From: Gemmatimonadota bacterium
Lineage (GTDB): Bacteria; Gemmatimonadota; Gemmatimonadetes; Gemmatimonadales; Gemmatimonadaceae
Direction: 5' to 3'
Assembly (NCBI GenBank): GCA_016794835.1
Contig: JAEUJL010000525.1
Location: forward strand, 1 to 35,750
Length of the DNA stretch: 35,750 bases
Position 1 is the stretch's first letter. Each line of letters starts with the position of its first letter. The notes below the pieces were generated by a model. It worked only from the letters and a program-made list of their open reading frames with translations. It was not told the DNA's origin and did no database searches. Made by a program: the position numbers and the translations under genes. Below, in pieces: positions 4,185 to 26,866 of the stretch.

Positions 4185-4718
4185 TCACGATGTCACGAAC
4201 AGGAACATCATGCCGTGACTTCCGCGAATCGGGATCCATTCCCTTCCCATCATTCCCGAGCCCATTCCGGCGCGCGACATTGCGCTCGAGGTCATCATAC
4301 TCCCCGTCACAGAGCGTCCCCCAAGCCCGACGCACGCACCATGATTCAGGCGCTCACCCGATGCGGTGCGAAGGTCCGGCGCCAGGTGCAGCACATATTG
4401 TGACCGCGCCGCGAGCCTGGCCGCAGGTGTGAACGTCAGCGTCGTCCGGTCGGTCGACCACGCGTAGCTCCCCGCGACAGCAGGGCCGTCGATCGTCCGC
4501 TCGTGAAGCACGACGAGCATCTCCATACCACTCATCATGGAGCGATTGAACCGGACAACGACCGGCCGACTCGGATCGACTCCCTGAGTGCCACCCGCGG
4601 GGACGACGCTCAGTACCCCCGATGCATCGTCCATCCCCACGACGTCCATTGGTGCAGCACAACCGGCGGCCACAAGGGCGCCGAGCGCTACGATAGCTCT
4701 TGCAGAACGTGTACGCAT
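4185..4718 (-). CDS. Lipoprotein with an SbsA/Big_5-like Ig domain and a methionine-rich C-terminal tail (putative periplasmic Cu(I)-binding protein)
   Basis: ATG 4718 is preceded by GGAGAGG with a 6-nt spacer. Lipobox LVAAGC. An Ig-like block is present (VVPAGGTQGVDPSRPVVVRFNRSM ... TLTFTPAARLAARSQYVLHL). The last 39 aa contain 8 Met (GSMMTSSAMSRAGMGSGMMG...SHGMMF). Confidence 0.6.
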   Translation of the reverse strand: MRTRSARAIVALGALVAAGCAAPMDVVGMDDASGVLSVVPAGGTQGVDPSRPVVVRFNRSMMSGMEMLVVLHERTIDGPAVAGSYAWSTDRTTLTFTPAARLAARSQYVLHLAPDLRTASGERLNHGACVGLGGRSVTGSMMTSSAMSRAGMGSGMMGREWIPIRGSHGMMFLFVTS

Positions 4719-4873
4719 TTGTGACCTCTCCGCTTGGGAACTGTGCGCCGAGTTGTGTGCTCGGACTACGGTATGTTCGGGCATCGGCGCATCAGGATCA
4801 GTCAGGGTTCTCCTCAGGAGCCGTAGTGTGTATTATGTAGGCTAAAACGCTGCGCCCGGAGGAGGAGCTCCGT

Positions 4874-5614
4874 GTGACGCTGCCCCCTCGTCCTCGCAGA
4901 CCAGGGAGCGTTTGCGACGCTGGCCAGCGGCTGAGTCCGCCTTCGTTCACCATGCCTCCGTTGACACACAACGAGTTTGTTCCCGCCCTCGGTTTTCGCT
5001 TCCTGACGCGCCTCTACGATCCGCTGATGCGCTGGACAATGCGCGAGCAGACGTTCAAGGAAGCGCTGCTCAAGCAGGCCGCCATCGCGGCCGGGCAGCG
5101 CGTGCTGGACCTGGGCTGCGGAACGGGGACGTTGACGCTGCTCGTCAAACAGCGCGCACCAGGAACCGAGGTGTATGGGGTCGACATTGATCCCACAGCG
5201 CTGGAGATCGCGCGCAGGAAGTTTGAGCGCATGGGAGTCGAACTCCAACTCGACCAGGCGCGGACGAGCCTCCTGCCCTACGCCGATGCGACATTCGACA
5301 GAGTCATCTCGAGTCTCGTCTTCCATCACCTCAGGCCCGAGGAGAAGAGGCAGACGGCGTGTGAGATCCTTCGCGTGCTGCGCCCAGGCGGAGAACTGCA
5401 CGTGGCGGACTGGGGCAGACCGCAGAACGTGCTCTTGCGGGCCGCCTTTCTAACGGTGCAAGCACTCGACGGTTTCGCCACGACGGACGAGAACGTGCGC
5501 GGAGCGCTGCCCAACGCCTTCACCGCGGCGGGCTTTGCCGACGTTTCGGCCACGCAACAGTTTGCTACTGCCTTCGGGACGGTCGAGTTGCTACGGGCGC
5601 GGCGCGCGGAGTGA
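4874..5614 (+). CDS. Class I SAM-dependent methyltransferase
   Basis: Motif I VLDLGCGTG, with downstream motifs (VYGVDID, FDRVISSLVFHHL, LRPGGEL). GTG 4874 is 7 nt after GGAGGAG. Confidence 0.85.
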   Translation: MTLPPRPRRPGSVCDAGQRLSPPSFTMPPLTHNEFVPALGFRFLTRLYDPLMRWTMREQTFKEALLKQAAIAAGQRVLDLGCGTGTLTLLVKQRAPGTEVYGVDIDPTALEIARRKFERMGVELQLDQARTSLLPYADATFDRVISSLVFHHLRPEEKRQTACEILRVLRPGGELHVADWGRPQNVLLRAAFLTVQALDGFATTDENVRGALPNAFTAAGFADVSATQQFATAFGTVELLRARRAE

Positions 5615-5728: not shown

Positions 5729-5758
5729 TTGACTTGTATTTGATTGCGCGTCAAATAC
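5729..5758 (+). promoter_or_regulatory. Candidate promoter with an embedded dyad operator upstream of the cus-type operon
   Basis: TTGACT (5729-5734), a 16-nt spacer, then TCAAAT (5751-5756). A perfect 8-bp inverted repeat overlaps it: GTATTTGA (5736-5743), 7 nt, TCAAATAC (5751-5758). The core TTTGA-N7-TCAAA is identical in sequence and spacing to the dyad at 27376-27394. Confidence 0.4.
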
Positions 5759-5824: not shown

Positions 5825-6106
5825 ATGCGCCTCGCGGGCTCCTTCAACAGGCACGTCGCCTGCGCACTGCTGGCGTCCGCACCGATCCAAGCGGTGCCCT
5901 CGAGTGCCCGGCATGCGGCGAAGTCACCTTGGGCCGGACGCTCCGCGGAGGCAGCCCAGCCTGGGGCACCAATTCAACCGTCGGATCTGGCCGTGATGCG
6001 CGCGGACACCCGCACCGGTGAGGTCGGTGAGCCCATCGACGGCGACGTGGACGAACTACAACCCATGGCTGGTGCATCAGGCGCGTCGGCCCAACAGGGA
6101 GCCTAA
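5825..6106 (+). CDS. Hypothetical small protein (93 aa) filling the leader of the cus-type operon
   Basis: The ORF ends 9 nt before the OMF start. Third-position GC looks coding-like by eye. The N-terminus is weakly signal-like (MRLAGSFNRHVACALLASAPIQA). No recognisable family and no clear SD. Confidence 0.3.
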   Translation: MRLAGSFNRHVACALLASAPIQAVPSSARHAAKSPWAGRSAEAAQPGAPIQPSDLAVMRADTRTGEVGEPIDGDVDELQPMAGASGASAQQGA

Positions 6107-6114
6107 GCAGGAAC

Positions 6115-7506
6115 ATGCTGATCCTCGGATCGAAAGCACCAACCGGATGGCGCACCATCGTGCGCGGCGTTCTCGGGGTACAGGCTGCGTTAGGCGCGGT
6201 TATCGCGGACCATCCGCCGCTCCTGGCGCAGGATCGTGGGAACCCCACGGTCACCGCTGCGGCCGGGCAGGCGCCCGCGCTACTTCTCGGCGATCTTTAT
6301 CGAGACGTGCGGCGCGAGAACCCGCGCGCTGAAGCGGCGCGCGCGCTCACGAGGGCCGCGGAGGCGCGGGTCCCCGGCTCGAAGCGGCCACCGGATCCCC
6401 AAGTGCAGTTCGGCTTCATGAACTACACCGTGCCGGGACTCAAACCCATGGATCCACTCGGCATGGCCCAGCTGCAGGTCATGCAGATGGTCCCGGTCGC
6501 GGGCAAGCTGTCGCTGGCGGGGAAGATCACGTCGTCGCAGGCCCTGGCCCAGCGCGAGCGCGCCAACGAGGTCGAGTGGGAATCGCGGACCCAGGCGGCT
6601 ATGGCGTTCTACGATCTCTATCAGACCGACCAGGCACTCTTGGTGGCACGCGAGACCCTGCGGTTGCTGCAGGACCTCCAGCGGACGGCCGAGGCGATGT
6701 ACCGGGTGGGAGAAGGCCGCCAGGCGGATGTCCTGCGCGCCCAAGTGGAAGTCGCTCGCATGACCGAGGACACCATCCGCATGCAAACGATGCGCCTGGG
6801 GATGCGAGCGCGGATTAACGCCCTGCTGAACCGAGCGGGCGATGCATCGATCGCGCCACCGGAAGTGCCCGCGTTCCCGGACTCCGTCCTTACACTCGGC
6901 GAGCTCGCGGCAGCGGCGGAGCGCGGGCGGCCGATGGTGAGAGCCGGTGAGCGCGACCTGGAGGCCGCCGACGCCGGGTCCACACTCGCCCGGCGCGAGC
7001 TCTGGCCGGACCTCACGTTAGGCATCCAGTATGGCCAGCGGTCCGGCCTGATGAACACCGAACGCATGGGAAGCCTGATGGTGGGCGCGAGCGTCCCGGT
7101 GTTTGCGCGCAGCCGGCAGCTCCGGATGCGGGAGGAGGCGAGCGCGATGCAGGCCATGGCCCGCGCCGATCTCGTCGCGATGCGTTCGGAGACCAGAGGC
7201 AGGGTGACCGAAGCGTTCGCGAACCTGGTGAGGGCGCGCAACCTCATCGCGCTCTATCGGCACACCGTGATGCCGCAAGCCGAGGCCACGGTGACCTCGT
7301 CGCTCGCGGCGTATCGGGTAGGGAGCGTCAACTTCATGACTGCTCTCGACAGCCGCATGACCGTGAACCGCTACCGCCAGGAACTCTTCACACTCGTGGC
7401 GGACGAAGGCAAGTCATGGGCCGAGCTTGAGATGCTGCTCGGCCGCGAGCTCTTCAACCCACCCGTCAGCGCCGGCGTCACGGAAGGAAAAGGAGGTACG
7501 AGATGA
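6115..7506 (+). CDS. cusC: TolC-family outer membrane factor of the Cus-type efflux system
   Basis: 463 aa with the two-repeat coiled-coil/barrel character of OMFs. It lies directly upstream of, and is translationally coupled to, the MFP and CusA genes. Confidence 0.8.
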   Translation: MLILGSKAPTGWRTIVRGVLGVQAALGAVIADHPPLLAQDRGNPTVTAAAGQAPALLLGDLYRDVRRENPRAEAARALTRAAEARVPGSKRPPDPQVQFGFMNYTVPGLKPMDPLGMAQLQVMQMVPVAGKLSLAGKITSSQALAQRERANEVEWESRTQAAMAFYDLYQTDQALLVARETLRLLQDLQRTAEAMYRVGEGRQADVLRAQVEVARMTEDTIRMQTMRLGMRARINALLNRAGDASIAPPEVPAFPDSVLTLGELAAAAERGRPMVRAGERDLEAADAGSTLARRELWPDLTLGIQYGQRSGLMNTERMGSLMVGASVPVFARSRQLRMREEASAMQAMARADLVAMRSETRGRVTEAFANLVRARNLIALYRHTVMPQAEATVTSSLAAYRVGSVNFMTALDSRMTVNRYRQELFTLVADEGKSWAELEMLLGRELFNPPVSAGVTEGKGGTR

Positions 7507-8981
7507 AGTACGAAAACCCTGAAGGTGCTCGAGCCGTCGAGCCTGTGGTCACGCCGCCTGTCCCCGTAACACGTGAGCCCGGACCAGCACCGCATGCCCC
7601 GTCGCACGCCCCGGGGGGCGCAGCCGATTCGATGTCGGCGCCAACGCCCTTCCGCGACTCGTCAGGCGGGGGACGGCGCGCGCTGCGCTGGGCCCTCTAT
7701 GCGAGTGCCCCCATGCTGGCGATTGTGGCCGTGCTGCTGGTTACGCGGCGCGCGCCATCAGCGCCTGCTGCGGCTGCGGCAGGTCACGAGCACACGGGTG
7801 GCGCTCCGGCCGCCAGCGCTGCCGCCCCCGTCATGCTCTCCGCTGATGCCTCGCGGCGCATCGGAGTGACGTACACGCTGGCGACGATAGGCCCACTCGC
7901 GCGCGAAGTCCGAACGGTGGGCCAGGTGACGGTCGACGAAACGCGGGTGAAGTCCATCTCGCCGAAAATCGACGGATGGGTCGAGCGTCTGGACCTCAAT
8001 TACCTCGGCATGCCCGTGCGCGCCGGCGATCCGTTGCTCGCGATCTACTCGCCGATGCTCGTCACCGTTCAGGAAGAACTGCTCCTCGCGAAGAAACTCG
8101 CCATGGACGTGGTCGGCGGGACGTCAGAAGCCACGCGGAGCGCGGCCGAACTCCTCAGCTCGGCCAGGCGCCGACTGGCCTACTGGGACATTCCCCAGAG
8201 CGACATCGATCGCATCGAGCAGACCGGGGAGGTGCTGCGCACGCTCACGCTTCGCTCACCGGTCAGTGGCGTCGTGGTCGAGAAGTCGGTGTTCGCGGGA
8301 CAGAAAATCATGGCCGGGGACGCGATCTTTCGCATCGCAGACCTGAGCATCGTGTGGGTCGAGGGAGAGGTGTTCGAGCAGGACCTGTCGCTCGTCCGCA
8401 TGGGACGGACTGTCACGGCGGAGTTCGAGGCCCTGCCCGGTGAACAGGTCACCGGACGCATTGCCTACCTCTATCCGACGCTTAACCCCGATACACGAAC
8501 AGCGCGCGTGCGCGTGGAGATGCGCAATCCCGGCCTGCGCCTGAAGCCAGGCATGTACGCCACGTTTCGCTTCAGTGCCGGGAACCGACTGAATGTGCTC
8601 AGCGTGCCGCGGTCGGCGATACTGTCGACCGGCGCTCGCAGCCTCGTGTTTGTCAAGCGAGCCGATGGGCAGCTTGAACCGCGGGATGTCACGCTTGGCG
8701 TCGCGGGAGTGGATCGTGTCGAGGTCCGGTCCGGCCTGGAGGCTGGAGAGACGGTTGTGGCCTCGGCCACATTCCTGGTGGATGCGGAGTCGAACCTCGG
8801 ATCCGCGCTCGGTGGGATGGGCAACATGCCGGGCATGGACATGTCGCCTGCCGGCGCCGGTGCAAAGGCGCCAGCACGGCCGCCCGGTACCCCATCGCAA
8901 AAGGACACGGGGACTACTGCGCCGGACGCGATGGCGGAGATGCCCGGCATGAAGCCTCCCCCCCCGGCCCGCCGGAGGTGA
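7503..8981 (+). CDS. cusB: Efflux RND periplasmic adaptor (MFP), CusB-like, with a Met-rich C-terminal tail
   Basis: ATGA overlap with the OMF stop. HlyD/MFP blocks are present (ISPKIDGWVERL, LAIYSP, SPVSGVVVEK, WVEGEVFEQD). The tail at 8811-8978 has 7 Met in 56 aa. The N-terminal 60 aa precede the TM segment, so an internal start is possible. Confidence 0.85.
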   Translation: MKYENPEGARAVEPVVTPPVPVTREPGPAPHAPSHAPGGAADSMSAPTPFRDSSGGGRRALRWALYASAPMLAIVAVLLVTRRAPSAPAAAAAGHEHTGGAPAASAAAPVMLSADASRRIGVTYTLATIGPLAREVRTVGQVTVDETRVKSISPKIDGWVERLDLNYLGMPVRAGDPLLAIYSPMLVTVQEELLLAKKLAMDVVGGTSEATRSAAELLSSARRRLAYWDIPQSDIDRIEQTGEVLRTLTLRSPVSGVVVEKSVFAGQKIMAGDAIFRIADLSIVWVEGEVFEQDLSLVRMGRTVTAEFEALPGEQVTGRIAYLYPTLNPDTRTARVRVEMRNPGLRLKPGMYATFRFSAGNRLNVLSVPRSAILSTGARSLVFVKRADGQLEPRDVTLGVAGVDRVEVRSGLEAGETVVASATFLVDAESNLGSALGGMGNMPGMDMSPAGAGAKAPARPPGTPSQKDTGTTAPDAMAEMPGMKPPPPARRR

Positions 8982-8987
8982 CCGGTC

Positions 8988-11900
8988 ATGCTCAATCGCA
9001 TCATCGAATGGGCGACGAACAACAAGCTGATCGTGCTGATGTTCACGGTCGCCTCGATTGCTGGGGGAGTCTGGGCGATTTCGCGCACCCCGCTCGAGGC
9101 GCTCCCCGACCTGAGCGACGTGCAGGTGATCGTGCAGGCCGAGTTCAGCGAGCAGGCGCCGCGGATCGTGGAAGACCAGGTCACGTACCCTATCGCCGCC
9201 GAGATGCTCAAAGTGCCTAACGCGCGAACCGTGCGGGGGTATTCGTTCTTTGGCATTTCCTTTGTGTACATCATCTTTGACGACGGGACCGATCTCTACT
9301 GGGCGCGTTCCCGGGTGCTGGAGTACCTGAGCGGAATAAAGGGGAAACTTCCGGCAAGCGTCACGCCGACGCTCGGCCCAGACGCGACGGGGTTGGGCTG
9401 GGTGTACCAGTACGCCCTCGAGGACACGACGGGAAAGCTCACGCTGGCCGAGCTGCGGAGTGTGCAGGACTGGTTCCTGCGATATGCGCTCACCGCGGTC
9501 CCCGGCGTCTCCGAGGTCGCGAGCGTTGGCGGATTCGAGAAGCAGTACCAGGTGGACATCGATCCGGCAAAGCTGCTCGCCTACGGGATCCCCGTGGCGC
9601 GGGTGATGAGCGCCATCCAGAACGCCAACAGCGACGTCGGCGCGATGGTGATGGAGCTCTCCGAGCGCGAGTACATGGTGCGGGGGCTCGGATACCTCAA
9701 GTCCATCTCGGACATCGAGAATGTGGTCGTCGGCGCCACGGCGAACGGGACACCGATCCGGGTGGCGGAACTCGGGCAAGTGGCCATCGGGCCCGCGGTG
9801 CGGCGTGGCGTGGCTGAACTCGATGGCCGCGGCGACGCTGTCGGAGGCATCGTCGTCATGCGCTTCGGCCAGAATGCACTCGAGACCATTCGAAATGTCA
9901 AGACAAAGCTCGCTCAAGTACAGAAGGGACTGCCCCCCGGCGTCGTGGTGCGCACCGTCTACGACCGCAGCGATCTCATTGAACGGTCGATCGAGAACCT
10001 GCGAGGCAAATTGCTCGAGGAAAGCGCCGTCGTGGCGCTGGTCTGCATCGCCTTTCTGCTGCACGCCAGTTCTGCGCTGGTGGCGATCATCACCCTCCCC
10101 ATCGGCATCCTGATTGCCTTCATGGCCATGCGATATGTCGGTGTCGGGGCGGACGTCATGTCGCTAGGCGGTATCGCCATCGCGATCGGGGCAATGATCG
10201 ACGCAGCCATCGTGATGATCGAGAACATGCACAAGCACCTCGAGCGCGCCGCGGCCCTGAAGGGTCTGGCCGGCGGCGACGAGCAGCGGCGCTGGTTCGA
10301 CACACGGGCGCTCAGCGCGTCCGAACGATGGCGCGTGGTCACGGAATCATCGAAGGAAGTGGGGCCGGCGCTGTTCTTTTCCCTCCTCATCATCACCGTC
10401 TCCTTCCTCCCGGTCTTTTCGCTCGAGGGGCAGGAGGGGCGGCTGTTCCGTCCCCTTGCGTTCACCAAGACGTTCTCGATGGCGGCGGCGAGTCTCCTGT
10501 CCATCACGCTCGTCCCGGTGGCGATGGGCTTCTTCATTCGAGGTCGGATCTACAAGGAGCGGTCGAATCCGATCAATCGCGCGCTGATCGCGCTCTATAG
10601 ACCGGTCATTGTCTGGGTCCTGCGCCATCGACTGCCCGTGATCTCGGCGGCGGTCGTCGTTCTCGTGTTCACGTGGATCCCGTGGTCGCGCCTGGGAAGC
10701 GAGTTCATGCCGCGGCTGGACGAGGGCACGGTGCTGTTCATGCCGACGACCCTGCCGGGTGTGAGCGTCGCGCGCGCGAGAGAGATCCTGCGCATACAGG
10801 ATAGCCTGCTCATGACCTTTCCCGAGGTGGAGCACGTGTGGGGAAAGGCTGGTCGCGCCAATACCGCGACCGATCCCGCTGGACTCGACATGTTCGAGAC
10901 CACAATCATGCTGCAGCCGGAGGATCAGTGGCGGCCCGGACTGACGTACGACCAGCTCATCGGGCAGATGGACTCCGCCGTCAAGCTCGCCGGCGTGACG
11001 AACGCGTGGACGATGCCGATCAAGGGGCGTATCGACATGCTTGCCACGGGCATCCGAACGCCAGTGGGTATAAAGGTGTTCGGACCGGACCTGGCGGAAC
11101 TCGAGCGTCTCGGCAAGGAGGTGGAGCGCTCGGTGCAGATGGTCCGCGGCACCAGAAGCGCGTTCGCCGAGCGCGCCGTGTCGGGCTACTACCTCGACAT
11201 CGACATCGACCGTGCGGCAGCGGCGCGGCACGGCCTGAACGTCGGCGACGTGCAGCTGGTGATCGCGACGGCGATCGGCGGGATGACGATCACGCAGACG
11301 GTCGAGGGGCGGGAACGGTACGGAGTGCGTGTGCGATACCCGCAGGAGCTGCGCGACACGCCGGAGAAGCTGGCCTCGGTGCTGGTGCCGATCAGTCACA
11401 ACCGGTCAGCCGGAGCGACGTCAGGCGAGGCGGGATCCATGGGTGGGATGGGCACTGCCGATGGCGCGACGCGAGGTGGCGCGCCTCAAGTGCCGCTGGG
11501 CCAGGTCGCGACGATTCGGAAAGTGGCGGGTCCGATGGTGGTGCGAACCGAGGATGCGATGCCGACGGCGTGGGTCTACGTAGACGTGGTGGGTCGCGAC
11601 ATCGGCAGCTACGTCGCCGAGGCGCAGCAGATGGTGGAACGCGAGGTAACGCTGCCGCCCGGCTACTCCATCGTGTGGAGCGGGCAGTACGAGTACATGC
11701 AGCGGGCCAAGGAGCGTATGAAGCTCGTGATCCCGGCGACGCTTGCCCTGATCTTTCTGCTCCTGTACTTCAACTTCAAGAGCGTCGGCGAAACGATGAT
11801 CGTCATGCTCTCGCTGCCATTTTCCATCGTTGGTGGAATGTGGTTTCTCTGGTTGCTCGGGTACAACTGGTCGGTGGCCGTGGCGATCGGATTCATCGCT

Positions 11901-12350
11901 CTGGCCGGCGTCGCAGCTGAGACCGGGGTGGTGATGCTGATCTACCTGGATCACGCGTGGACCGCCCGGCGCTCGGACGGTCGAACGCCGTCGCTCGACG
12001 ACCTGTACGACGCGGTCATGGAAGGAGCGGTTGAGCGCGTACGCCCCAAGATGATGACGGTCACGGCGATCATGGCCGGGCTGCTGCCGATCCTGTGGGG
12101 TCACGGCGCCGGCGCGAGCGTCATGAAGCGTATCGCGGCGCCGATGGTGGGTGGGATGATCTCGAGCACAGTGCTGACGCTGGTGGTCATCCCTGCGATC
12201 TACTCCTTGTGGAAGGAGCGGGAGGTGCGTACGGCACAGCGCCGTGGACGGCCCGCTCCGATCCTCGAACCTCTGTTGCCAGCGGCCGGGGCCGGCGCAA
12301 CCGACGGCGCGGTATGGCTGGCCCACAACTCGGATGGAGTCTCACCATGA
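8988..12350 (+). CDS. cusA: CusA-type heavy-metal efflux RND pump, Cu(I)/Ag(I) type
   Basis: Near-collinear similarity to E. coli CusA as I recall it (ALPDLSDVQVI, GTDLYWARSRVLEYL, LGPDATGLGWVYQYAL). Met residues occur in the contexts of the CusA M573/M623/M672 triad (LFMPTTLPG, LDMFETTI, RIDMLATGI). TM4 is of the monovalent type (GAMIDAAIVMIEN). Confidence 0.95.
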   Translation: MLNRIIEWATNNKLIVLMFTVASIAGGVWAISRTPLEALPDLSDVQVIVQAEFSEQAPRIVEDQVTYPIAAEMLKVPNARTVRGYSFFGISFVYIIFDDGTDLYWARSRVLEYLSGIKGKLPASVTPTLGPDATGLGWVYQYALEDTTGKLTLAELRSVQDWFLRYALTAVPGVSEVASVGGFEKQYQVDIDPAKLLAYGIPVARVMSAIQNANSDVGAMVMELSEREYMVRGLGYLKSISDIENVVVGATANGTPIRVAELGQVAIGPAVRRGVAELDGRGDAVGGIVVMRFGQNALETIRNVKTKLAQVQKGLPPGVVVRTVYDRSDLIERSIENLRGKLLEESAVVALVCIAFLLHASSALVAIITLPIGILIAFMAMRYVGVGADVMSLGGIAIAIGAMIDAAIVMIENMHKHLERAAALKGLAGGDEQRRWFDTRALSASERWRVVTESSKEVGPALFFSLLIITVSFLPVFSLEGQEGRLFRPLAFTKTFSMAAASLLSITLVPVAMGFFIRGRIYKERSNPINRALIALYRPVIVWVLRHRLPVISAAVVVLVFTWIPWSRLGSEFMPRLDEGTVLFMPTTLPGVSVARAREILRIQDSLLMTFPEVEHVWGKAGRANTATDPAGLDMFETTIMLQPEDQWRPGLTYDQLIGQMDSAVKLAGVTNAWTMPIKGRIDMLATGIRTPVGIKVFGPDLAELERLGKEVERSVQMVRGTRSAFAERAVSGYYLDIDIDRAAAARHGLNVGDVQLVIATAIGGMTITQTVEGRERYGVRVRYPQELRDTPEKLASVLVPISHNRSAGATSGEAGSMGGMGTADGATRGGAPQVPLGQVATIRKVAGPMVVRTEDAMPTAWVYVDVVGRDIGSYVAEAQQMVEREVTLPPGYSIVWSGQYEYMQRAKERMKLVIPATLALIFLLLYFNFKSVGETMIVMLSLPFSIVGGMWFLWLLGYNWSVAVAIGFIALAGVAAETGVVMLIYLDHAWTARRSDGRTPSLDDLYDAVMEGAVERVRPKMMTVTAIMAGLLPILWGHGAGASVMKRIAAPMVGGMISSTVLTLVVIPAIYSLWKEREVRTAQRRGRPAPILEPLLPAAGAGATDGAVWLAHNSDGVSP

Positions 12351-12874
12351 ACAGGAACATCACAAAGGTCGAGCGCCGCGAGGGGCGCGTCGCCACGGCC
12401 GTGGCGCGGACACGGTTCACGCGACGCGCTTGGATCGGAGCCATCACGGGTGGATTGGCGCTTGTGATCATTGGAGAGCGTAAGCGGCGGACGCGGCCGC
12501 TCCTGGCGTTGGGCGAGGTGACGGTCTTCAAGAGCCCGAGTTGCCAGTGTTGCGGCAAGTGGGTAGAGCGTATGCGCGAGCACGGCTTCGCCCTCGGGGA
12601 GGAGAACATGGCCGACGTTTCGCCGGTCAAGCAGAAGTACGGAGTGCCAGCGAATCTCTACTCGTGCCACACCGGGATCGCCGGCGGTTACAGCTTCGAG
12701 GGGCACGTCCCGCCGGACCTGGTCGCCCGTGTCCTGCAGGAACGGCCCGGGTTTGCGGGGCTGGCGGTACCCGGCATGCCACAGAGTGCGCCCGGGATGG
12801 ACCTCGGTCATCAGCCATACGACGTGCTGTCGTTCACGCAGAGTGGGGAGACCGCGGTGTATGCAACGCGCTGA
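12347..12874 (+). CDS. copG: DUF411 (CopG-family) periplasmic copper-binding protein
   Basis: ATGA overlap with the cusA stop (12347-12350). DUF411 signature CQCCGKW and the GMPQSAPGM block are present. The N-terminus is TAT-like followed by a TM (FTRRAWIGAITGGLALVII). The longer tracked ORF (12095..) overlaps cusA and is rejected. Confidence 0.85.
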   Translation: MNRNITKVERREGRVATAVARTRFTRRAWIGAITGGLALVIIGERKRRTRPLLALGEVTVFKSPSCQCCGKWVERMREHGFALGEENMADVSPVKQKYGVPANLYSCHTGIAGGYSFEGHVPPDLVARVLQERPGFAGLAVPGMPQSAPGMDLGHQPYDVLSFTQSGETAVYATR

Positions 12875-13205: not shown

Positions 13206-14375
13206 TCAGATCCACTGCCTCAGCCAGCGGCGTTCGAACAGCACCTTGCCCCAGTGCCACCACCGACTCGGACGACGCAGCGTCACGACCGGCGTCGGCT
13301 CGCCGTAGAAGTTGCCCGCTCCCAACCCCGCCCGGCCGTCGCCTGTCTCGAGGAAGCACTGGCCCTCCCCGCTAAACGTTCGACGCCCACCAGCTCCCGT
13401 CCACAGCCAGACAACATTCGACGCGACCACCTCGGCCTGACCATGAGCAAAGACGCCGGCTTTCGGCAGCGGCTTCCCCATCGTAAGTGGAACGATGGTC
13501 ACGTCCCCGATCGCGTACACACCCTGGAACCGCGTCTCGAACGTTTCGCGATTCACCGGGACCCATCCACTCTCGTCGACGAGACCCGAAGCGCCAACCA
13601 CGGCGGGCACGCGGTGCGGTGGAACGTAGGCGAGGAGGTCGAACTCTGCTGTCGCCCCATTCGCGAATGCGAGTCGCCGCCCAACGGGATCCACGGTGAC
13701 GACCTGGTGCAACGGGTGATAGCTGATCCCCTTGGACTCCACCACGCTACGCACCGCTGCCGAGACGTGCGGCCCCGCCACGCCCATGGGTCCTGCCTCC
13801 GCGGCATACAGATCCAGCACGCATTCGCCTCGCGTCCCACGACGCCGCATCGCCGCCTCCACGAGCATGATCGCCTCGTACGGCGCTGCAGGGCACTTGT
13901 AGGCCGGCGCAGCGGTCAACACCACAATCCGGCCACCCCGACACGCGGCCAGCGCACCGCGGAAGGTGGTCGCCCCCTCCAGTGTGTAGAGATTGTGCCC
14001 GGCAGCAGCGAGCCCGGGAATCGCGTCAGGGGCCAGGTCGGCGCCGAGCGCCACGATGAGCGCATCCCCTGAGACGTCCTGGCCACCCGCACGGATCGTC
14101 CGCGTCGTGGGATCGATCTCGGTGATCTCGCCGGTGATCACCTCGATCCCCTTCTGAAGGAGTCGCTCGAGCGGGCGCTGGATGCTTGCGGGGGTGCGAT
14201 CGCCGACCGCCAGCCAGAGCAGTGACGGTTGGAACAGGTGCGCCCGTTCGCGATCGACCAGGATCACCCGGTGCTGGCGTGGGAGCCGTCGTCTCAAGTG
14301 GTTGGCTGCGACGATACCGCCGACGCCGCCGCCGAGGACGAGCACCGTCTTCGCTTGCATTCCTGATATCAACAT
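13206..14375 (-). CDS. FAD-dependent oxidoreductase of the sulfide:quinone oxidoreductase (SQR) family
   Basis: N-terminal Rossmann motif VLVLGGGVGGIVAA. An SQR-like block is present (YKCPAAPYE, VYAIGD, FAHGQAEV). A GAAGGTG RBS precedes ATG 14375; the alternative start is 14360. It lies directly downstream of a DsrE gene. Confidence 0.7.
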   Translation of the reverse strand: MLISGMQAKTVLVLGGGVGGIVAANHLRRRLPRQHRVILVDRERAHLFQPSLLWLAVGDRTPASIQRPLERLLQKGIEVITGEITEIDPTTRTIRAGGQDVSGDALIVALGADLAPDAIPGLAAAGHNLYTLEGATTFRGALAACRGGRIVVLTAAPAYKCPAAPYEAIMLVEAAMRRRGTRGECVLDLYAAEAGPMGVAGPHVSAAVRSVVESKGISYHPLHQVVTVDPVGRRLAFANGATAEFDLLAYVPPHRVPAVVGASGLVDESGWVPVNRETFETRFQGVYAIGDVTIVPLTMGKPLPKAGVFAHGQAEVVASNVVWLWTGAGGRRTFSGEGQCFLETGDGRAGLGAGNFYGEPTPVVTLRRPSRWWHWGKVLFERRWLRQWI

Positions 14376-14413
14376 CGGTCACCTTCACGGTTTGGCAGCG
14401 ACCTGCGGTCGCC

Positions 14414-14764
14414 TTAGAAGACCACGACCTTCCCGGCCCACGTTGTCCACTCCGCCAGCTCATCGAGCGTGCTCCGCCTGGCACCGTCCACCAGCTCCGC
14501 ATCCGTCATCCCACGCGCAGCCATACAGGTCCCGCATACCCCGATCGGAACCCGCCGCAGCGTCAGCGTATGCAGCATGCTGTTGATGTTGTAGTAGCCC
14601 TGCGGCACGACGTGACCGCGCTTCGCGCACGCGGTGGCGTCGCCCAGGAGAAACAGGCGCACGTCGGTCCCCTCACGTTTCGCCAGTGCGCCGGCCAACC
14701 GAAGGGCGTTGTAGCTGCGCTCAGTTCCGTAGGGCGGGTCGTTCAGGATGAAGATCGTGTTCAT
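14414..14764 (-). CDS. DsrE/DsrF-family sulfur-relay protein
   Basis: 116 aa. Typical N-terminus (IFILNDPPYGTERSYNALRLA) and the Cys loop IGVCGTCMAARG. An AGGTGG RBS precedes the ATG. Confidence 0.8.
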   Translation of the reverse strand: MNTIFILNDPPYGTERSYNALRLAGALAKREGTDVRLFLLGDATACAKRGHVVPQGYYNINSMLHTLTLRRVPIGVCGTCMAARGMTDAELVDGARRSTLDELAEWTTWAGKVVVF

Positions 14765-14967
14765 GGTACCACCTGAGGTATCGGGTGATCACGTAGTTGA
14801 GTCGTGTTGTTCGTCCCGGTCTCCCGGTTATCCGCCTCCGCTCGTTCGTCCTCCGGCAGTAAGACCTCGGTCCCTGATGCATCACACGTCTCCGGGTCAG
14901 GTGGCGCGACGACGTGCGGGAAGTGTCTCGGGCATTCGGAGTCCGACGAGTACGCCTGACGCGGCGG

Positions 14968-16242
14968 TCATTGCCGCCCAACGCCGATGGCCACGGGCAT
15001 ACTGAACAGGTCCGCGAGCACCCCGGCGAGTACGGCCCCGACGGCGTACCCCATGTCGCGCCAGAGGCGATACACTCCGACGGCCGACCCGCGCCAGGAC
15101 GGAAGCGCGACGTCGCCGATCACGGCGAGCAGCGTCGGATAGACCAAGGCGGTCCCAACGCCGAGTACGGCGCCGGTGACGAGCCACGGGGTAAAGCCGC
15201 GCCAGACGACCATGACTGCGAGGGCAGCACCTTGCAGCAGCATTCCGCCGGCGATCATCCACTTGCGTCCCCACCGGTCACTGAGCGCGCCCGTCCAGAG
15301 CTGGGCCACACCCCATGTGGCAGGGTAAACAAACGCTAGAATGCCGATCTCCCGTAGCGACAGTCCGGCGGCGGCATAGAGGAGCGGAAAGAGGCCCCAA
15401 GCGAGGCCGTCATTCAGATTGTTGACCATCCCCGCCTGGCTGGCGCTGGCCAGTGCCGGATCGCGCCAAGTGCCTCGCGCAAAGAGTACGCGCATCGACG
15501 GCGGGGCCGCTGCCGACCCACCGGTTGTGTTCACATGAGCACTGGCCTCCCCTCGCGCGTGGAACGTCGTGTCGCGCACGAAGAGCACGCTGAGCGCGAG
15601 ACCAACTGCGGCGAAGGCGATCCCGAGGTAGAACGGCTCGGGACGGAGCCCATACCGGCCGGCAATGACGCCGGTGGCCAGGGCGCAGAGCGCCACCGCC
15701 AGATAGCCGGCGCACTCGTTCATCCCCATCGCCAGCCCGCGCCGCCTCGGCCCCACGAGGTCGATCTTCATGATGACCGCGGTCGACCAGGTGAGCCCCT
15801 GATTGATTCCGAGGAAGACGTTCGCGACAACGATCCAGTCCCACGTGGGCGCCCACATCACCAGCAGGGGCACGGGCAACGCGAACACCCAGCCGGCAAC
15901 GAGGACGGGCTTGCGTCCGTAGCGGTCACCAAGTCGGCCAGCCAACAGGTTGGTGAGCGCCTTCACGACACCAAAGGTGGCCACGAAGGAGAGCGTGGCC
16001 GTTCTGGATGCGAGACCGAACTCGCGCTCTCCAAGCAACGGAAGGACGCTGCGCTCCAGTCCCACCATGGCGCCGACAAACGCATTGACCAGCACGAGCA
16101 GTGCGAATTGTCGCCAATTCTCGCGCAGCCCGAGGCGCGGCGCCGCAGGAACCGTGTCGACGTTCGGAAGCGCCGCGCCGTGTACCATGGTGAGGGTGGG
16201 GGTTGCGGCGTGTGCCGGGTGGAGTCGCGGTCCGCTGCTCAC
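14968..16242 (-). CDS. MFS transporter
   Basis: About 12 predicted hydrophobic helices. MFS loop motifs are present (GRLGDRYGRKPVL, LSDRWGRKW). A GTGA overlap couples it to the upstream ArsR-rhodanese gene. Confidence 0.85.
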   Translation of the reverse strand: MSSGPRLHPAHAATPTLTMVHGAALPNVDTVPAAPRLGLRENWRQFALLVLVNAFVGAMVGLERSVLPLLGEREFGLASRTATLSFVATFGVVKALTNLLAGRLGDRYGRKPVLVAGWVFALPVPLLVMWAPTWDWIVVANVFLGINQGLTWSTAVIMKIDLVGPRRRGLAMGMNECAGYLAVALCALATGVIAGRYGLRPEPFYLGIAFAAVGLALSVLFVRDTTFHARGEASAHVNTTGGSAAAPPSMRVLFARGTWRDPALASASQAGMVNNLNDGLAWGLFPLLYAAAGLSLREIGILAFVYPATWGVAQLWTGALSDRWGRKWMIAGGMLLQGAALAVMVVWRGFTPWLVTGAVLGVGTALVYPTLLAVIGDVALPSWRGSAVGVYRLWRDMGYAVGAVLAGVLADLFSMPVAIGVGRQ

Positions 16243-16976
16243 GAGGCCCTTCGGCGACGCCGTGAACTCGCGGCGTCCTCGGGCTCGGCCGCCGCAGCGC
16301 CCGGCCCCGTCTCCACGGGATAGCCGGCGAGCCGCCAGCCGGGGAGTCCGTCCGCAAATCGTCGCGCGTCGAGTCCCCGCTTGCGGACGCGTTCAACAGC
16401 TTCGGCGGCCATGACGCAGTAGGGGCCGCGACAATACGCCACGACCATCCGATCTCTCGGCAGGTCTCCGACGCGCGCGTTCAGCTGCTGGAGTGGAACC
16501 GAGAGGGCCCCGGCAATGTGTCCCGCGTTGTACTCCGCCGCCGGGCGCACGTCGATGAGCGTGACCTCCCCCGCCTTCAGCCGCCGACGCAGTTCAGCCC
16601 GATCGACGGGCTCGAGTGCGTCCCGGTGCTCGAAGTAGGTGCGAATCAGGTGGTCGACCTCCCGCAGCCGACGCCGGGTGAGCGCCTGCAGGGGGAGGAG
16701 GACGTCGAATAGTGCTTGGTCGGCAATGCGGTAGTAGACGAACTGTGCCTGTTTGCGCGTCTCCACAAGTCGCGCGCTCTTCAACACGGTCAGGTGCGAG
16801 GAGGTGTTGTTGACGGTGAGGGCCGCTTCGCGCGCCAGCACCTCGACCGTGCGCTCCCCCTGGGCGAGGACCTCAAGGAGTTCGAGCCGCTTGGGGCTGG
16901 CCAGCGCCTTCGCCGTATCGGCCCAGGCAGCGTACAGTGTGTCCTTCAGGTTGCGATGATCCACCGGCGCTCTCAT
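16239..16976 (-). CDS. ArsR/SmtB-family transcriptional regulator fused to a C-terminal rhodanese domain
   Basis: The N-terminal winged HTH (LASPKRLELLEVLAQGERTVEVLA...SSHLTVLKSARLV...YYRI) contains no Cys. The C-terminal rhodanese domain has the active-site loop YCRGPYC. Confidence 0.85.
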   Translation of the reverse strand: MRAPVDHRNLKDTLYAAWADTAKALASPKRLELLEVLAQGERTVEVLAREAALTVNNTSSHLTVLKSARLVETRKQAQFVYYRIADQALFDVLLPLQALTRRRLREVDHLIRTYFEHRDALEPVDRAELRRRLKAGEVTLIDVRPAAEYNAGHIAGALSVPLQQLNARVGDLPRDRMVVAYCRGPYCVMAAEAVERVRKRGLDARRFADGLPGWRLAGYPVETGPGAAAAEPEDAASSRRRRRAS

Positions 16977-17097: not shown

Positions 17098-18459
17098 TCA
17101 GGAGACACGCACGCCGTCTCGCTCGAGCTCGACCTGGTTGGCACGCCGCGCCACGGTGCCGGGCGGGTCAGCGTACCAGCCAGGATCAACCTGGCTCGTC
17201 ACCTGCTCCCGCACCTTGAGGATCGTGAACATGCCGCCCATGTCGATGTAGCCCTTCGGCCCCTCCCGGCCCAGCATGGGAATGGAGTTGCGAGGCACGG
17301 GCATCCCCATGACCGCATGGTCGCCCATACCCGTTTGCCCCATGGTCATGTAACTCGGCAACAGGTCGCGGGCGGCAGCATCGATGCGCGCGGCTTCCGC
17401 CCCGACGAAGTTCACACCGCTGTGCCCCATCTGGTTCATGGTGTGGTGCGTCATGTGGCAGTGCATCGCCCAGTCGCCGGGGTTCGTCGCTGTGAACTCC
17501 ACCGTTCGCGTCGTGCCCACTGGCACCAACACGGTAGTCTCCGGCCACTGCCCTGCGGCATCGATCGGCCCTCCGTCGGTGGCCACCACACGCCAGGCAA
17601 GTCCGTGCACATGGATCGGATGATGGCTCATCGCGCTCAGGTTGCCGAAGCGCACTCGCACGTCGTCGTTGAGCTGGATCACTAGCGGTGCGGTGCCTGG
17701 GAAGGCCTTGCTGTTGAAGGTCAGCACATTGAAGTCGACCATCTCGTTGGGATCCGGGCGCGATGTCCCAATGCCGATCCGCCACTCACTGGACAACATC
17801 ACGAAGTCCTTATCCGGTCGGCGGCGTTCGCCACGCTCGTGCACGACCAACATCCCCATCATGCCCAACGCCTGCTGGGTCATCTCATCGTAGTGCGGAT
17901 GGTACATGTACGTCCCGTACTGGTTCAGATCGAACTCGTAGAGGTACGTCTCCCCCGGGGGTATCGGCGCCTGACTCAACCCGGACACACCATCCATGCC
18001 TGACGGCAGGATGATCCCGTGCCAATGCACACTCGTCGGCTCAGGTAAGCGATTGGTGACGTAGATCCGCACCCGATCCCCCTCCACCACCTCGATCGTC
18101 GGGCCAATCGTCCGCCCGTTGTAGCCCCAGCACTTTCCCGTCAGCCCCGGGGCGAACTCGTGGTCGAACTCGCCGGTCGTAAGATGGAAGACCTTCACAC
18201 CGTCCACGATCCGAAATGGCAGCGTTTCGCCGTTTGGCGTGATCACGGGCGTGTAGTCTCGGCCCGGAAGGCCCGGCGACACACGTCGGCGCACCCGCGC
18301 AACCGCTAACGCATCCACCGGGACCGACGGTTGCGGCCTGGGGGGCGGCGTGACATGCCCTGCATGCTGAGCTCCGGCGATGCCGGACGCCCCGCTCGTC
18401 ACCGCGAGTACCGCCAATCCCTGGCTGATGGCATTCCGCCGTGACATGGCGTCCGTCAT
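17098..18459 (-). CDS. TAT-exported multicopper oxidase (CopA/PcoA/CueO-like)
   Basis: All four Cu-ligand motifs are present: HWHG, HPHYDEM, HPIHVHG and HCHMTHHTMNQM. TAT motif SRRNAI. ATG 18459 overlaps the upstream OMF stop (ATGA). A Met-rich segment lies at 17218-17358. Confidence 0.9.
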   Translation of the reverse strand: MTDAMSRRNAISQGLAVLAVTSGASGIAGAQHAGHVTPPPRPQPSVPVDALAVARVRRRVSPGLPGRDYTPVITPNGETLPFRIVDGVKVFHLTTGEFDHEFAPGLTGKCWGYNGRTIGPTIEVVEGDRVRIYVTNRLPEPTSVHWHGIILPSGMDGVSGLSQAPIPPGETYLYEFDLNQYGTYMYHPHYDEMTQQALGMMGMLVVHERGERRRPDKDFVMLSSEWRIGIGTSRPDPNEMVDFNVLTFNSKAFPGTAPLVIQLNDDVRVRFGNLSAMSHHPIHVHGLAWRVVATDGGPIDAAGQWPETTVLVPVGTTRTVEFTATNPGDWAMHCHMTHHTMNQMGHSGVNFVGAEAARIDAAARDLLPSYMTMGQTGMGDHAVMGMPVPRNSIPMLGREGPKGYIDMGGMFTILKVREQVTSQVDPGWYADPPGTVARRANQVELERDGVRVS

Positions 18460-19868
18460 GGTGCGCTCCCTGTAGGTTGTTTCTGGGTGGCTTCGCGGCG
18501 CTCCTCCTCGCTGAGTGGCACCAGCGAACCTCCCGCCGCGCGCTCCAGCTCTGCGCGCGTCGTCCAATACGCCGCCAACGCTTCCACGTATGACTGTCCC
18601 GCCTCGACCTCGGCTTGACGCGCCAACAGGAGGGTAAAGATGGTCTCCTGCATCGCGTTCACGAATCGCTGCATCTCGCTGACCACGAGACTCCGGGCGG
18701 GTAACACGTCCGTGCGCAGCTGAAGCGCCCGGGCGCGCGCCCCTGCCATGCGGGCAGCAAGCGTCGTCACCTCGGCCGACACATCCACCACAGCGGCATC
18801 GTGTAACGCGACCGACTGTCGCAACAGCGCGCGATCACGCGCAATCCGCGCCTGGCCGCGATCGAAAAACGGAAGAGGCAGCGAGAACCCGCCGCCGCGG
18901 AAGGCCCCATCCGGCTCCCGTTCATAGCCCAGGCCGATGGTCCCGTCTGCAAGAAGGGCGAACCGCTGAGTCAGTCCAAGTGCTCGCGCTCGCGTCTCCA
19001 CGTCCTGACGTCGTGCGCGCAGGTCGAGGCGGCGTACCAACGCGACCTGCACGACATCGCGCCCCGTCGGTCCCGCATCCTCCGGATCGGCGAGCCGCGA
19101 CGCTACCGTCCACGTCGTATCGGTCGCGTCCAATCCCATCAACCGCGACAGCTCGGCTCGCGTCACCTGTTGCTCTTCACGAGCCCGGATCAGTGACACC
19201 TGCGCCTGCCCCGCCATCGCCCGCTCCTGCGCCAACACAAGGTCGGGAAGGTTACCGGCGGCGTGCAACACGCGCGCGCTCGTGGCACTGGCCGACGTGG
19301 CTGCGCCCACGGTCGTCCATAACTCAACCATCTGCGTGGCGGCCTGTGTCATGACGTAGGCGACGCGAACGCGCTTCGCCAGGTCAATCACCGCATCGGC
19401 CACACGCTGCTCGGCAGCTCGCAACGCGCTCTCCGATACCCGGGTACGCAACGGGCGTTGCAGAGCATCCACCAGGGGGAGCACGACCCCCGCCAGTCGG
19501 ACGGAACCGGCTCCGGAGGCCAGCCGCTCCACGGAAACAACGGGATTTGCGAGCAACCCGGCTTGCCGCAGGTCCGCCTGCGCAAGGCCAACCTCCTCCA
19601 ACGTGGCGCTCAGGTTGCGGTTCATCAGGAGCGCCACCTTGACCGCCGTGTCGATAGGGACTTCGCCCCGGACCACTCGGCGCGCCCACATCGTGACGGC
19701 GGTGTCTGCACTGGTCGTTGCGGGCAGACGCCAGCTGCCACGTTCTGCCAACAACTCCTGCACCCGGCCGAGGTCCGTGGGTCTCCCGGCACTCGCGCAG
19801 CCGCTGATCATCCCGAGCAAGGCGAGGCAGGCTCCCCCGGCGGCGCCACGCGCAAAATTTGCGGTCAC
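18456..19868 (-). CDS. TolC-family outer membrane factor lipoprotein
   Basis: Lipobox LGMISGC. 470 aa with OMF repeat architecture. GTG start 4 nt after the DUF4198 stop. Confidence 0.8.
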   Translation of the reverse strand: MTANFARGAAGGACLALLGMISGCASAGRPTDLGRVQELLAERGSWRLPATTSADTAVTMWARRVVRGEVPIDTAVKVALLMNRNLSATLEEVGLAQADLRQAGLLANPVVSVERLASGAGSVRLAGVVLPLVDALQRPLRTRVSESALRAAEQRVADAVIDLAKRVRVAYVMTQAATQMVELWTTVGAATSASATSARVLHAAGNLPDLVLAQERAMAGQAQVSLIRAREEQQVTRAELSRLMGLDATDTTWTVASRLADPEDAGPTGRDVVQVALVRRLDLRARRQDVETRARALGLTQRFALLADGTIGLGYEREPDGAFRGGGFSLPLPFFDRGQARIARDRALLRQSVALHDAAVVDVSAEVTTLAARMAGARARALQLRTDVLPARSLVVSEMQRFVNAMQETIFTLLLARQAEVEAGQSYVEALAAYWTTRAELERAAGGSLVPLSEEERREATQKQPTGSAP

Positions 19869-19872
19869 GCAG

Positions 19873-21183
19873 CTAATTCCCCGCCGCGCGCCGCGTCCGC
19901 GACGACCAGTGGACCGCCGAGATGCGCCAGCCCTGCGGCGTCCGCACGAGCACCACGAGTTCAGCGCCCGCTGAATTTACCGCGCGGCCACGATAGTCAC
20001 CGGTGGTTGTGCTGGTCCCCGTCACCCACGCCACGTCTCCGCGAACCGTGACTCGACGTACGAGGCGGTCGCTCTTGATGGCCTGCGCGAATGCCATGTC
20101 CCCTGGCAGGTGATGCGAGCGGTACTCGTCCCTGGTCTCGACACCGCCAGACTCCAGGATCATCACATCGTTGGACAACAGCGAGAGTGCACCCGTACTG
20201 TCGCCAGCCGCGAGGGCCGCGTGGAACCTGGTCACGGCGGCGAGGGCCCCTGCCGAATCCGTGGTCGGCTGCACCCGCGGAAGTTCGACCACGCCATTCG
20301 CCTCGTGCTTGTGCCCGCCGGGCACTTCGGTCCGGAACACCACCGTCGCGAACGCTACCTCCCATCCTCGCGCTCCCGCGGCCGCCGGCGCTGCGTGCAA
20401 CGTGCGCACGTTCCAGAGTCCGTCGTGATCAATCGCGATGGTCGCTTCCCCATCACCGTTGGTGACCATGTGTTGGTCCTTCACACCGGCCGGAAGCGCC
20501 GTGCTGTCGGTGACCGCGGCTTCGGGCGCCCAACCCGCGTGCAGGTGCGCGCCGGGTAACGGCTTTCCGCGAAACAGTAGCTTCACCGTGAGCGTGCCAC
20601 CGGTCTTGACCACCGATGGATCCGTCGTCGGCACAAACTCAAGCGCGTGCCCTACCACCTTGGCGAAGGCGCGAGGCCCCCCCATCCCGACTTCCACAAA
20701 GGTCTTGGCATACTTCGTGGTGTGCTGTTCCAGGCTGTCAGTGCCAACAAACGCTCCCTCACTGTCGTACCGCTGTGACAGCTCCGGCGCCCCTTCCAGC
20801 GCGATGTAGCGCTTGAGCCCCGCCGGAAGTGTCCGCGTCGTGCGCGTCACAAGCGCGACACTCACCACACGCTGTCCTGCGGACCCGGGGCGCTGTTTCA
20901 ACAGCAGTGACTTGCCGGCGACCGTCAGGTCCTTCACTGCCAGGTCATCGTTCGCTCCGATCACGCGGGCCTCCGCCACGCGCTCCGGCGTCACCGCGGA
21001 CAGTGAGACCGGAAACTTCGAGCTCGTCTGGCCGCGGATCTCCATGCTCGCGTTCCCCATGACCATGAATGCGTTCGGGATGATCCAGAAGTCGTGAGCG
21101 GCGGCGACCGCCGCGGTGATCGCCAACCCGACAGAAACGACAGCCAACCTGAGCGGCGAGCGCAACGACTGCGTCGAATGCAT
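19873..21183 (-). CDS. DUF4198-domain periplasmic protein fused to a C-terminal NTF2/SnoaL-like (DUF4440-type) domain
   Basis: The signal peptide ends AAA|HDFWIIP, which is the typical DUF4198 mature N-terminus beginning with His. The central block is DUF4198-like (LEFVPTTDPSVVKTGGTLTVKLLFRGKPLPGA). The last ~130 aa look NTF2-like (VTRFHAALAAGDSTGALSLLSNDVMILESGG...GWRISAVHWS). Confidence 0.7.
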   Translation of the reverse strand: MHSTQSLRSPLRLAVVSVGLAITAAVAAAHDFWIIPNAFMVMGNASMEIRGQTSSKFPVSLSAVTPERVAEARVIGANDDLAVKDLTVAGKSLLLKQRPGSAGQRVVSVALVTRTTRTLPAGLKRYIALEGAPELSQRYDSEGAFVGTDSLEQHTTKYAKTFVEVGMGGPRAFAKVVGHALEFVPTTDPSVVKTGGTLTVKLLFRGKPLPGAHLHAGWAPEAAVTDSTALPAGVKDQHMVTNGDGEATIAIDHDGLWNVRTLHAAPAAAGARGWEVAFATVVFRTEVPGGHKHEANGVVELPRVQPTTDSAGALAAVTRFHAALAAGDSTGALSLLSNDVMILESGGVETRDEYRSHHLPGDMAFAQAIKSDRLVRRVTVRGDVAWVTGTSTTTGDYRGRAVNSAGAELVVLVRTPQGWRISAVHWSSRTRRAAGN

Positions 21184-26864: not shown

Positions 26865-26866
26865 GG

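Follow-up and report, generated by a model that had tools for sequence, protein, structure and literature searches.

A pair of dyads lying 21.6 kb apart in a metal-resistance island of an uncultured Gemmatimonadota bacterium probably serves as operators for a BlaI-family repressor encoded next to one of them (26867-27337), which together with a membrane protease partner would control a metal-resistance regulon. The two dyads are the TTGAY-N5-RTCAA variant of a predicted 15-bp Gemmatimonadota operator that has the consensus cTTTAC-N5-GTAAAa and can be written in degenerate form as TTKAY-N5-RTMAA. The DNA behind these statements, referred to here as the window, is one 35,750-bp contig, and the analysis of the bacterium covers that contig. 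Pfam scans of all large ORFs in the window outline the island (Table 1), and homologues of its BlaI-like protein carry Gemmatimonadetes or Gemmatimonadaceae annotation. The window was compared with 108 related loci of about 0.75 Mb (given L numbers below), and as these loci were gathered through BlaI, finding the motif together with BlaI is in part a consequence of how they were chosen.

Table 1. Genes, operons, promoter elements and operator sites of the window, with corresponding genes in related loci where given
Feature	Position	Strand	Remarks
Big_5-domain gene	4185-4784	-	
Candidate degenerate fourth site	4831-4845	-	TTTAG-cctac-ATAAT; PWM 7.4 bits; upstream of Big_5-domain gene
Methyltransferase gene	4874-5614		On the other side of site 1 from the cus-type operon
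Site 1	5736-5758		GTATTTGA-N7-TCAAATAC; arms 5736-5743 and 5751-5758; perfect 8+8 palindrome
93-aa ORF	5825-6106	+	Probably no gene; coding score about 0 per codon
cus-type operon	6115-12874	+	Pfam; orthologous operons in L095, L103 and L106
cus-type genes	OEP 6115-7506; CusB-type MFP 7503-8981; RND pump 8988-12350; DUF411/CopG-like 12347-12874		
Putative operon	17098-24794	-	CopCD, P-type ATPase, DUF4198-DUF4440, OEP, multicopper oxidase; Pfam
Site 3	24818-24832		TTTAC-gtaac-ATAAA; canonical family type; pattern match; top PWM score in window
Alpha/beta hydrolase gene	24871-25782		Opposite strand; inserted between blaR and copCD; same insertion in L001 (6117-7118) and L102 (2845-3726)
BlaR1/PetP-like M56/M48 membrane metalloprotease	25845-26870	-	341 aa; PF05569, PF01435
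BlaI/MecI/CopY-family winged-helix repressor	26867-27337	-	156 aa; PF03965; start from homologue alignment
Inferred blaI promoter	27365-27392	-	-35 TTGACA 27387-27392; 16-nt spacer; -10 TACTTT 27365-27370
Site 2	27376-27394		GTTTGA-N7-TCAAAC; 40 nt upstream of the BlaI-like ATG (27337, minus strand)
czc-type operon	27505-35435	+	Divergent from blaI; Pfam
czc-type genes	27505-27843 (first gene)		Small His/Cys protein, then OEP, MFP, RND pump, P-type ATPase
PEPPPPR(A/V) leader genes, related loci	L015 1777-2163; L018 9398-9811; L065 10492-10977; L066 2505-2867; L094 3-569; L096 6746-7270; L103 8607-9086		First genes of cus-type operons

The original prediction, made by eye, described the dyad at site 1 and the recurrence of its core with the same spacing at site 2, and the sequence is as it described. 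It also reported seeing no other copy and judged such a dyad to be rare by chance. An exhaustive scan of both strands bears this out: the window has two exact copies of TTTGA-N7-TCAAA, at 5739-5755 and 27377-27393, and allowing one mismatch adds none. Dinucleotide shuffles give an expectation of 0.02 exact copies and 0.13 copies with one mismatch, with none of 100 shuffles reaching two, and an iid expectation for the dyad from intergenic composition comes to 0.0003. When both sites are read on the plus strand they have TTTGAT-N5-GTCAAA in common, which amounts to 12 identical positions, and the arms of the two dyads account for four of the ten occurrences of TTTGAY on the two strands of the window. 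Their flanks are unrelated, and the dyads are therefore not a duplicated segment.

The recurrence stands, and the motif itself turned out to be broader than TTTGA-N7-TCAAA. In that register the closest orthologues, L001 and L002, seemed not to have kept the dyad. Because alignment on the inner AC-N5-GT reveals one-mismatch or hybrid versions in these same two loci, the N7 description was dropped for TTKAY-N5-RTMAA. In the new register the operator core of site 1 is TTGAT-tgcgc-GTCAA (5740-5754) and that of site 2, in its minus-strand reading, is TTGAC-agtgg-ATCAA (27378-27392). The degenerate pattern has three matches in the window versus 0.01 expected, namely these two cores and a third related site that had been missed (site 3), and all three sit in metal-operon promoter regions. 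A position weight matrix (PWM) was built from canonical blaI-proximal sites outside the window only, which means that it penalises the G variant, and was used to rank about 71,000 positions. Site 3 scored highest, with 20.3 bits, while site 1 took fourth place with 9.4 bits and site 2 fifth place with 7.7 bits. The position ranked third (10.3 bits), GTTTACGTGGCAGAGAGC at 26406-26423, falls inside the blaR coding sequence with one good arm only and is probably a chance match. The bare GAC-N5-GTC core was also tried as a search pattern and found to be uninformative, with 18 chance matches in this GC-rich window.

The related loci place the window dyads within a family of sites. Most BlaI homologues with 57-70% identity have a conserved dyad, cTTTAC-N5-(G/A)TAAA(a/g), upstream of their genes, and in most of 80 loci it occupies a fixed position on the blaI promoter. 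In the family logo, which was drawn from 48 distinct blaI-proximal sites, a TAnnnT -10 element appears exactly 17 nt after the first hexamer of the operator (TTTACG), and the operator therefore covers the -35 box and half of the spacer. When aligned on the inner AC-N5-GT, the window dyad is the family dyad with G in place of T at the third position of both half-sites, where all 48 canonical blaI-proximal sites have T. The gap between the half-sites is highly specific. Across the roughly 0.75 Mb of related loci, TTKAY-Nx-RTMAA has 137 matches at x = 5 and between 0 and 3 at every other gap from 1 to 10, and everted and direct control arrangements in the same loci yield 0 to 6. Copies in the related loci are nearly all intergenic and recur ahead of metal operons: just 4 of the 104 distinct TTKAY-N5-RTMAA sites lie in called genes, though the DNA is 82% coding. 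Hybrid sites with one TTGAY and one TTTAY arm make up 14 of these 104 and are spread over many loci, including ones with a canonical BlaI; they are found at the blaI and copCD promoters of 75-80% orthologues as well. Because hybrids occur across so many loci, G-type and T-type half-sites are parts of one element. Double-G sites, in which both arms are TTGAY, accompany no BlaI protein less than 82% identical to that of the window, and with this restriction to a subclade it follows that the same protein may not bind G-type and T-type sites equally.

At the blaI promoter, site 2 overlaps the -35 box and the spacer, and its position equals that of the family dyad. The orthologue loci with 82% identity (L084-L093) have TTTGAC-tctgc-GTCAAA at the blaI promoter, so that the arms of the dyad are kept and the spacer is changed. 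A TAGTTT follows 16 nt after their dyad, which is the same architecture as the TTGACA-N16-TACTTT of the window, and the blaI promoter of L001 keeps TTGACcctgcATCtA. A strict sigma-70 scan found no promoter at sites 1, 2 or 3, with the -10 of the inferred blaI promoter matching at 3 of 6 positions, and for this reason the promoter assignments are taken from the family logo only. The original prediction held that the cus-type and czc-type operons share one regulator and named the BlaI-like protein as the candidate. Comparative evidence favors the cus half of this proposal. The czc half fared less well, because site 2 is on the blaI promoter, whereas the czc leader has its own conserved promoter-like element, TTTACT, some 75 nt from site 2 and about 40 nt before the ATG of the small His/Cys gene; control of czc by site 2 is therefore not supported. 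The small His/Cys protein at the head of the czc-type operon is 79% conserved in L001 (3243-3626), has a signal-like N-terminus and an HICHCLHAH motif, and returned no match in Pfam or NCBIfam. It may be metal-binding or regulatory.

Site 1 is intergenic and upstream of the cus-type operon, with 360 nt and an uncharacterised leader between it and cusC. A -35-like TTGACT (5729-5734) ends 1 nt before the dyad and is followed after 16 nt by TCAAAT. These two hexamers had been read as a promoter-like element, and the sequence is as reported, but the -10 role of the second is not upheld: TCAAAT has a C at position 2, and the sigma-70 scan found no recognisable -10 at this site. The small ORF that had been placed at the head of the cus operon is probably not a gene, judging by a coding score near zero and by a search among 5.8 billion proteins, a collection from which the ORF itself is absent, that returned no homologue. 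It consequently gives no homologue anchors for footprinting of the leader, and the site 1 leader had no orthologue for comparison, in that the contig of the 84% orthologue (L094) starts within an upstream gene and the upstream regions of L095, L096, L105 and L108 differ. Of the closest cus orthologues with visible upstream DNA, not all have the operator, which is absent in L095, L105 and L108. The cus-type operons of several relatives start with a small secreted Cys/Met/His-rich protein that ends in PEPPPPR(A/V) and has no family assignment (Table 1). This leader protein, which is unrelated to the 93-aa ORF, is absent from the window, a search for a pseudogene remnant of it between 5500 and 6200 found none, and the cus leader has no Rfam match. 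The last 105 nt or so before the cusC start (6016-6114) are 78% identical to the corresponding non-coding stretch of L094, with indels that are not multiples of three, and may represent a conserved 5' leader element.

Site 3 is of the canonical type. The likely start of copCD, on the minus strand, is about 60 nt downstream of it, and the divergent alpha/beta hydrolase gene begins 39 nt away on its other side. The same blaR-copCD interval in relatives carries TTTACgcatcGTAAA (L084-L087), TTTACgcagtATAAA (L001) or TTTACccagcGTCAA (L100/L101), and members of the subclade (L001, L084-87, L100-102) keep the order blaI-blaR-[T-type or hybrid operator]-copCD. Three subclade members have the alpha/beta hydrolase gene on the opposite strand between blaR and copCD, and in this arrangement the inserted gene and the copCD operator have a short upstream region in common. 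A candidate fourth site at 4831-4845 is degenerate, and we propose it as an operator with low confidence. The element that contains it, TTTAGcctacATAAT (4830-4848), has a homologue, TTTATcctacATAGA, upstream of the Big_5 orthologue in L001 (3757-3771). The Big_5 gene precedes blaI in L001 and is 22 kb from blaI in the window.

Beyond the blaI promoter, the related loci have extra copies of the operator upstream of CopCD, multicopper oxidase, DUF4198, OEP, P-type ATPase, CusC, DUF411 and Csp genes. The 19-kb contig L103 provides the best counterpart of the pair of dyads in the window. Its operators stand at the blaI promoter, at DUF4198 and at a gene for a Csp copper-storage protein. L103 also has a cusCBA-DUF411 operon, about 8 kb from blaI and with a CusC 76% identical to that of the window, and TTGACgcggaGTAAA lies 105 nt before the leader gene of this operon. 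The Csp copy in L103 (7877-7891) lies about 105 nt upstream of the gene (PF03860), and an operator before a Csp gene ties the regulon specifically to copper. In L018 and L027, operators also lie where blaI and cus operons diverge, and a one-mismatch version precedes the cus operon of L015. A module for sulfide oxidation sits amid the metal operons of the window (13206-16976), with a sulfide:quinone oxidoreductase-like flavoprotein, DsrE, an MFS transporter and an ArsR-rhodanese fusion regulator, and a similar module adjoins the BlaI locus in L014.

The two proteins of the proposed switch are encoded by a co-oriented gene pair, conserved in related loci, in which the start of blaR overlaps the stop of blaI by 4 nt. 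The BlaI-like protein matches PF03965 at model positions 1-114 of 115 with 65.9 bits (cut-off 22.6), and a profile of 30 BlaI homologues matches chains of Rv1846c, MecI, BlaI and CopR. None of its 156 residues is cysteine, which excludes direct metal sensing of the CopY type. The BlaR-like protease has its HEXXH motif as HERVH and shows no Pfam match beyond M56/M48 and no penicillin-binding sensor domain. Its C-terminal 45 residues, after the last hydrophobic segment, form a Cys/His-rich tail in which the motif HC.H-x7-HLFC-x~12-CPH is conserved across 46 BlaR-like homologues, as are the N-terminal positions GHH and H..LC..ALH..L.PVH..FH. These conserved Cys/His motifs are a candidate metal-sensing module in place of the beta-lactam sensor domain, and by analogy with the topology of BlaR1 the tail should be extracytoplasmic.

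How such a switch would operate can be outlined from the positions of the sites. At site 2, which covers part of the blaI-blaR promoter (the -35 box and spacer), the BlaI-like repressor would block RNA polymerase and thereby autoregulate. From site 1, just downstream of the -35-like TTGACT, it would repress the cus-type operon, and from site 3 the copCD-ATPase-DUF4198-OEP-MCO operon. Metal, most likely copper, would activate the co-transcribed M56 protease, and the activated protease would then cleave the BlaI-like repressor and derepress the regulon. The induction step is inferred by analogy with PetR/PetP and BlaI/BlaR1, and we also infer the identity of the binding protein, repression as the effect of its binding, the sensing of metal and the cleavage of the repressor. 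For the cus-type operon, the BlaI-like protein is the best candidate regulator, because the dyad at the blaI promoter is conserved, the element recurs before metal operons and PetR offers a precedent.

Three other explanations of the dyads deserve consideration. The first is that there are two BlaI paralogues, one encoded in the window that binds only the G-type dyads (blaI and cus) and a canonical one encoded elsewhere that binds the T-type copCD site. The restriction of double-G sites to BlaI proteins at least 82% identical to that of the window, together with the fact that canonical blaI-proximal sites never have G there, would fit this division of labor, as would the wing sequence, which reads RT(S/T)W-(D/E)G in the window subclade versus REK-DD in other members. 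However, many canonical members have the same recognition helix, LTTITVLNKLVAKG, as the window protein, and the subclade has kept a T-type or hybrid operator between its own blaI-blaR pair and copCD. Hybrid G/T sites are also common with canonical BlaI proteins, and no second blaI gene was seen in any related locus. We regard two paralogues as unlikely.

The second explanation accepts that the dyads are real and assigns them to another factor encoded outside the window, such as a MerR/CueR-type activator acting on a -35/-10 spacer, so that the BlaI gene is merely one target. MerR-type promoters have their dyad within a -35/-10 spacer of 19-20 bp, and site 1 has a comparable geometry, since it lies between the -35 TTGACT and a TAnnnT-type TACCGT 21 nt downstream. 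The link from BlaI to the sites is drawn from sequence comparison, and other regulators do occur beside cus operons in relatives, where L106 has a two-component system and L108 an ECF sigma factor. Against this stands the fixed, autoregulatory position of the element on the blaI promoter in most of the 80 loci. Half-sites of the TAC/GAC...GTA/GTC type are known for BlaI, MecI, CopY and PetR, from cop and bla operators among others, and those found here are of that type. Pfam scans of all large ORFs in the window found no MerR-type, two-component or other metal regulator, the only other regulator being the ArsR-rhodanese fusion inside the sulfide-oxidation module. A MerR-type promoter at site 1 was rejected given that no MerR gene is present, that the only TAnnnT after TTGACT is 21 nt away, a spacer that exceeds those of MerR-type promoters, and that the promoter scan was negative. 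Another factor therefore strikes us as a distinctly doubtful alternative. The third explanation, a coincidence of two unrelated A/T-rich promoter regions with back-to-back -35-like TTGA(C/T) and no dedicated regulator, can draw on TTGAC being the core of the sigma-70 -35 box, on a pattern defined after seeing the data and on intergenic DNA being somewhat richer in A+T, but it is already disfavoured and very improbable in view of an expected number of 0.0003-0.02, orthologues that keep the dyad with a changed spacer, enrichment at one spacing (137 versus 0-3) and an independent PWM that puts both sites in its top five.

Returning to the BlaI-like repressor as the binding protein, a wider reading is that a PetRP-like switch, made up of a BlaI-type repressor and a sensor-less M56 protease with a Cys/His tail, is the master regulator of copper and heavy-metal resistance in Gemmatimonadota. 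The regulon would then comprise RND pumps, P-type ATPases, CopCD, multicopper oxidase, Csp and DUF4198 under the operator TTKAC-N5-GTMAA. We see this wider reading as evenly poised. A survey of the open literature turned up PetRP, but for metal resistance it yielded no regulator of the BlaI/BlaR type, whether in Gemmatimonadota or in other organisms. The one known copper-dependent BlaR-type protease is PetP, which controls a photosynthetic protein swap. If true, the proposal would describe the first BlaI/BlaR-type system known to control metal efflux and would connect three branches of the family, those of bla/mec, CopY and PetR. For a soil phylum that has received little study and is mostly uncultured, it offers a concrete regulon model that can be tested, complete with an operator, predicted targets that span most classes of copper-resistance genes and a candidate metal-binding protease motif. 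Confirmation would make regulated proteolysis of a BlaI-type repressor a general metal-sensing strategy and would improve how about 1,700 genes labelled "BlaI/MecI/CopY family" are annotated, which in metagenomes are now read as regulators of antibiotic resistance.

Among characterised relatives, BlaI/BlaR1 systems are known for sensing antibiotics and CopY proteins for sensing copper directly. The copper repressors CopY, CopR and TcrY of Firmicutes belong to the same superfamily as the window BlaI and repress copper export genes. In contrast to the window system, CopY has no partner protease and does have a CxCx4CxC metal site, which is absent here. The TIGR02698 model scores the window BlaI at 31.6 bits versus a cut-off of 121.95, and the cop box TACAnnTGTA has no occurrence in the window. 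The BlaI/BlaR1 and MecI/MecR1 systems of Staphylococcus and Bacillus, like the window pair, combine a PF03965 repressor with a PF05569 protease, and their autoregulatory dyad operators are of the TAC...GTA type seen in the family described here. The window BlaI also resembles MecI in its full-length profile match, which includes the region aligned to the N101-F102 scissile bond; in the alignment, the homologue consensus in this region is ...aaS-L... and the window has A-S-F. The differences from bla and mec are that BlaR1 has about 585 residues and a penicillin-binding sensor domain whereas the window protease has 341 and none, that the neighbouring genes here are for metal resistance rather than for beta-lactamase or PBP2a, and that the TACA/TGTA arrangement of the bla/mec operators is replaced by half-sites 5 bp apart (TAC-N5-GTA).

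The closest known system, compared by its published description, is PetR/PetP of Synechocystis sp. PCC 6803 and other cyanobacteria. PetP is a BlaR-type protease without a sensor domain that degrades the BlaI/CopY-family regulator PetR in a copper-dependent manner (Garcia-Canas et al., 10.1101/2020.07.31.226407; PNAS 2021). PetRP controls only petE (plastocyanin), petJ (cytochrome c6) and two other genes (10.1101/2020.07.31.226407), and a 2023 review describes it as having no copper-homeostasis output and the role of BlaR homologues in heterotrophs as unknown. In contrast, petE and petJ are absent from the window, where the candidate targets are of the cus, copCD, ATPase and MCO type. The proposed ligands of PetP are two Met residues in the TM2-TM3 loop, unlike the Cys/His clusters of the window protease, which include the C-terminal tail. 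The two pairs are otherwise much alike. Each has a BlaI/CopY-family regulator that lacks the CopY cysteine motif and an M48/M56 membrane protease with HEXXH and without a beta-lactam sensor domain, and in each the two genes overlap, regulator stop with protease start. The likeness extends in part to the DNA. PetR binds in EMSA to promoters with a GAC-N5-GTC core and TTTGAC repeats, and its repressing site lies between the -35 and -10 boxes (10.1101/2020.07.31.226407); the window likewise has an inverted repeat with a 5-bp gap, which reads TTTGAT-N5-GTCAAA, and a predicted repressing site between or over the -35 and -10 elements. Most Gemmatimonadota sites differ from the PetR core in being TAC-N5-GTA rather than GAC-N5-GTC. 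The window sites, as GAT-N5-GTC, agree with it at 5 of 6 positions and the 82% orthologue agrees exactly, with TTTGAC-N5-GTCAAA, so that, on comparison of the two sequences, the PetR operator appears to be essentially the G-type dyad of the window.
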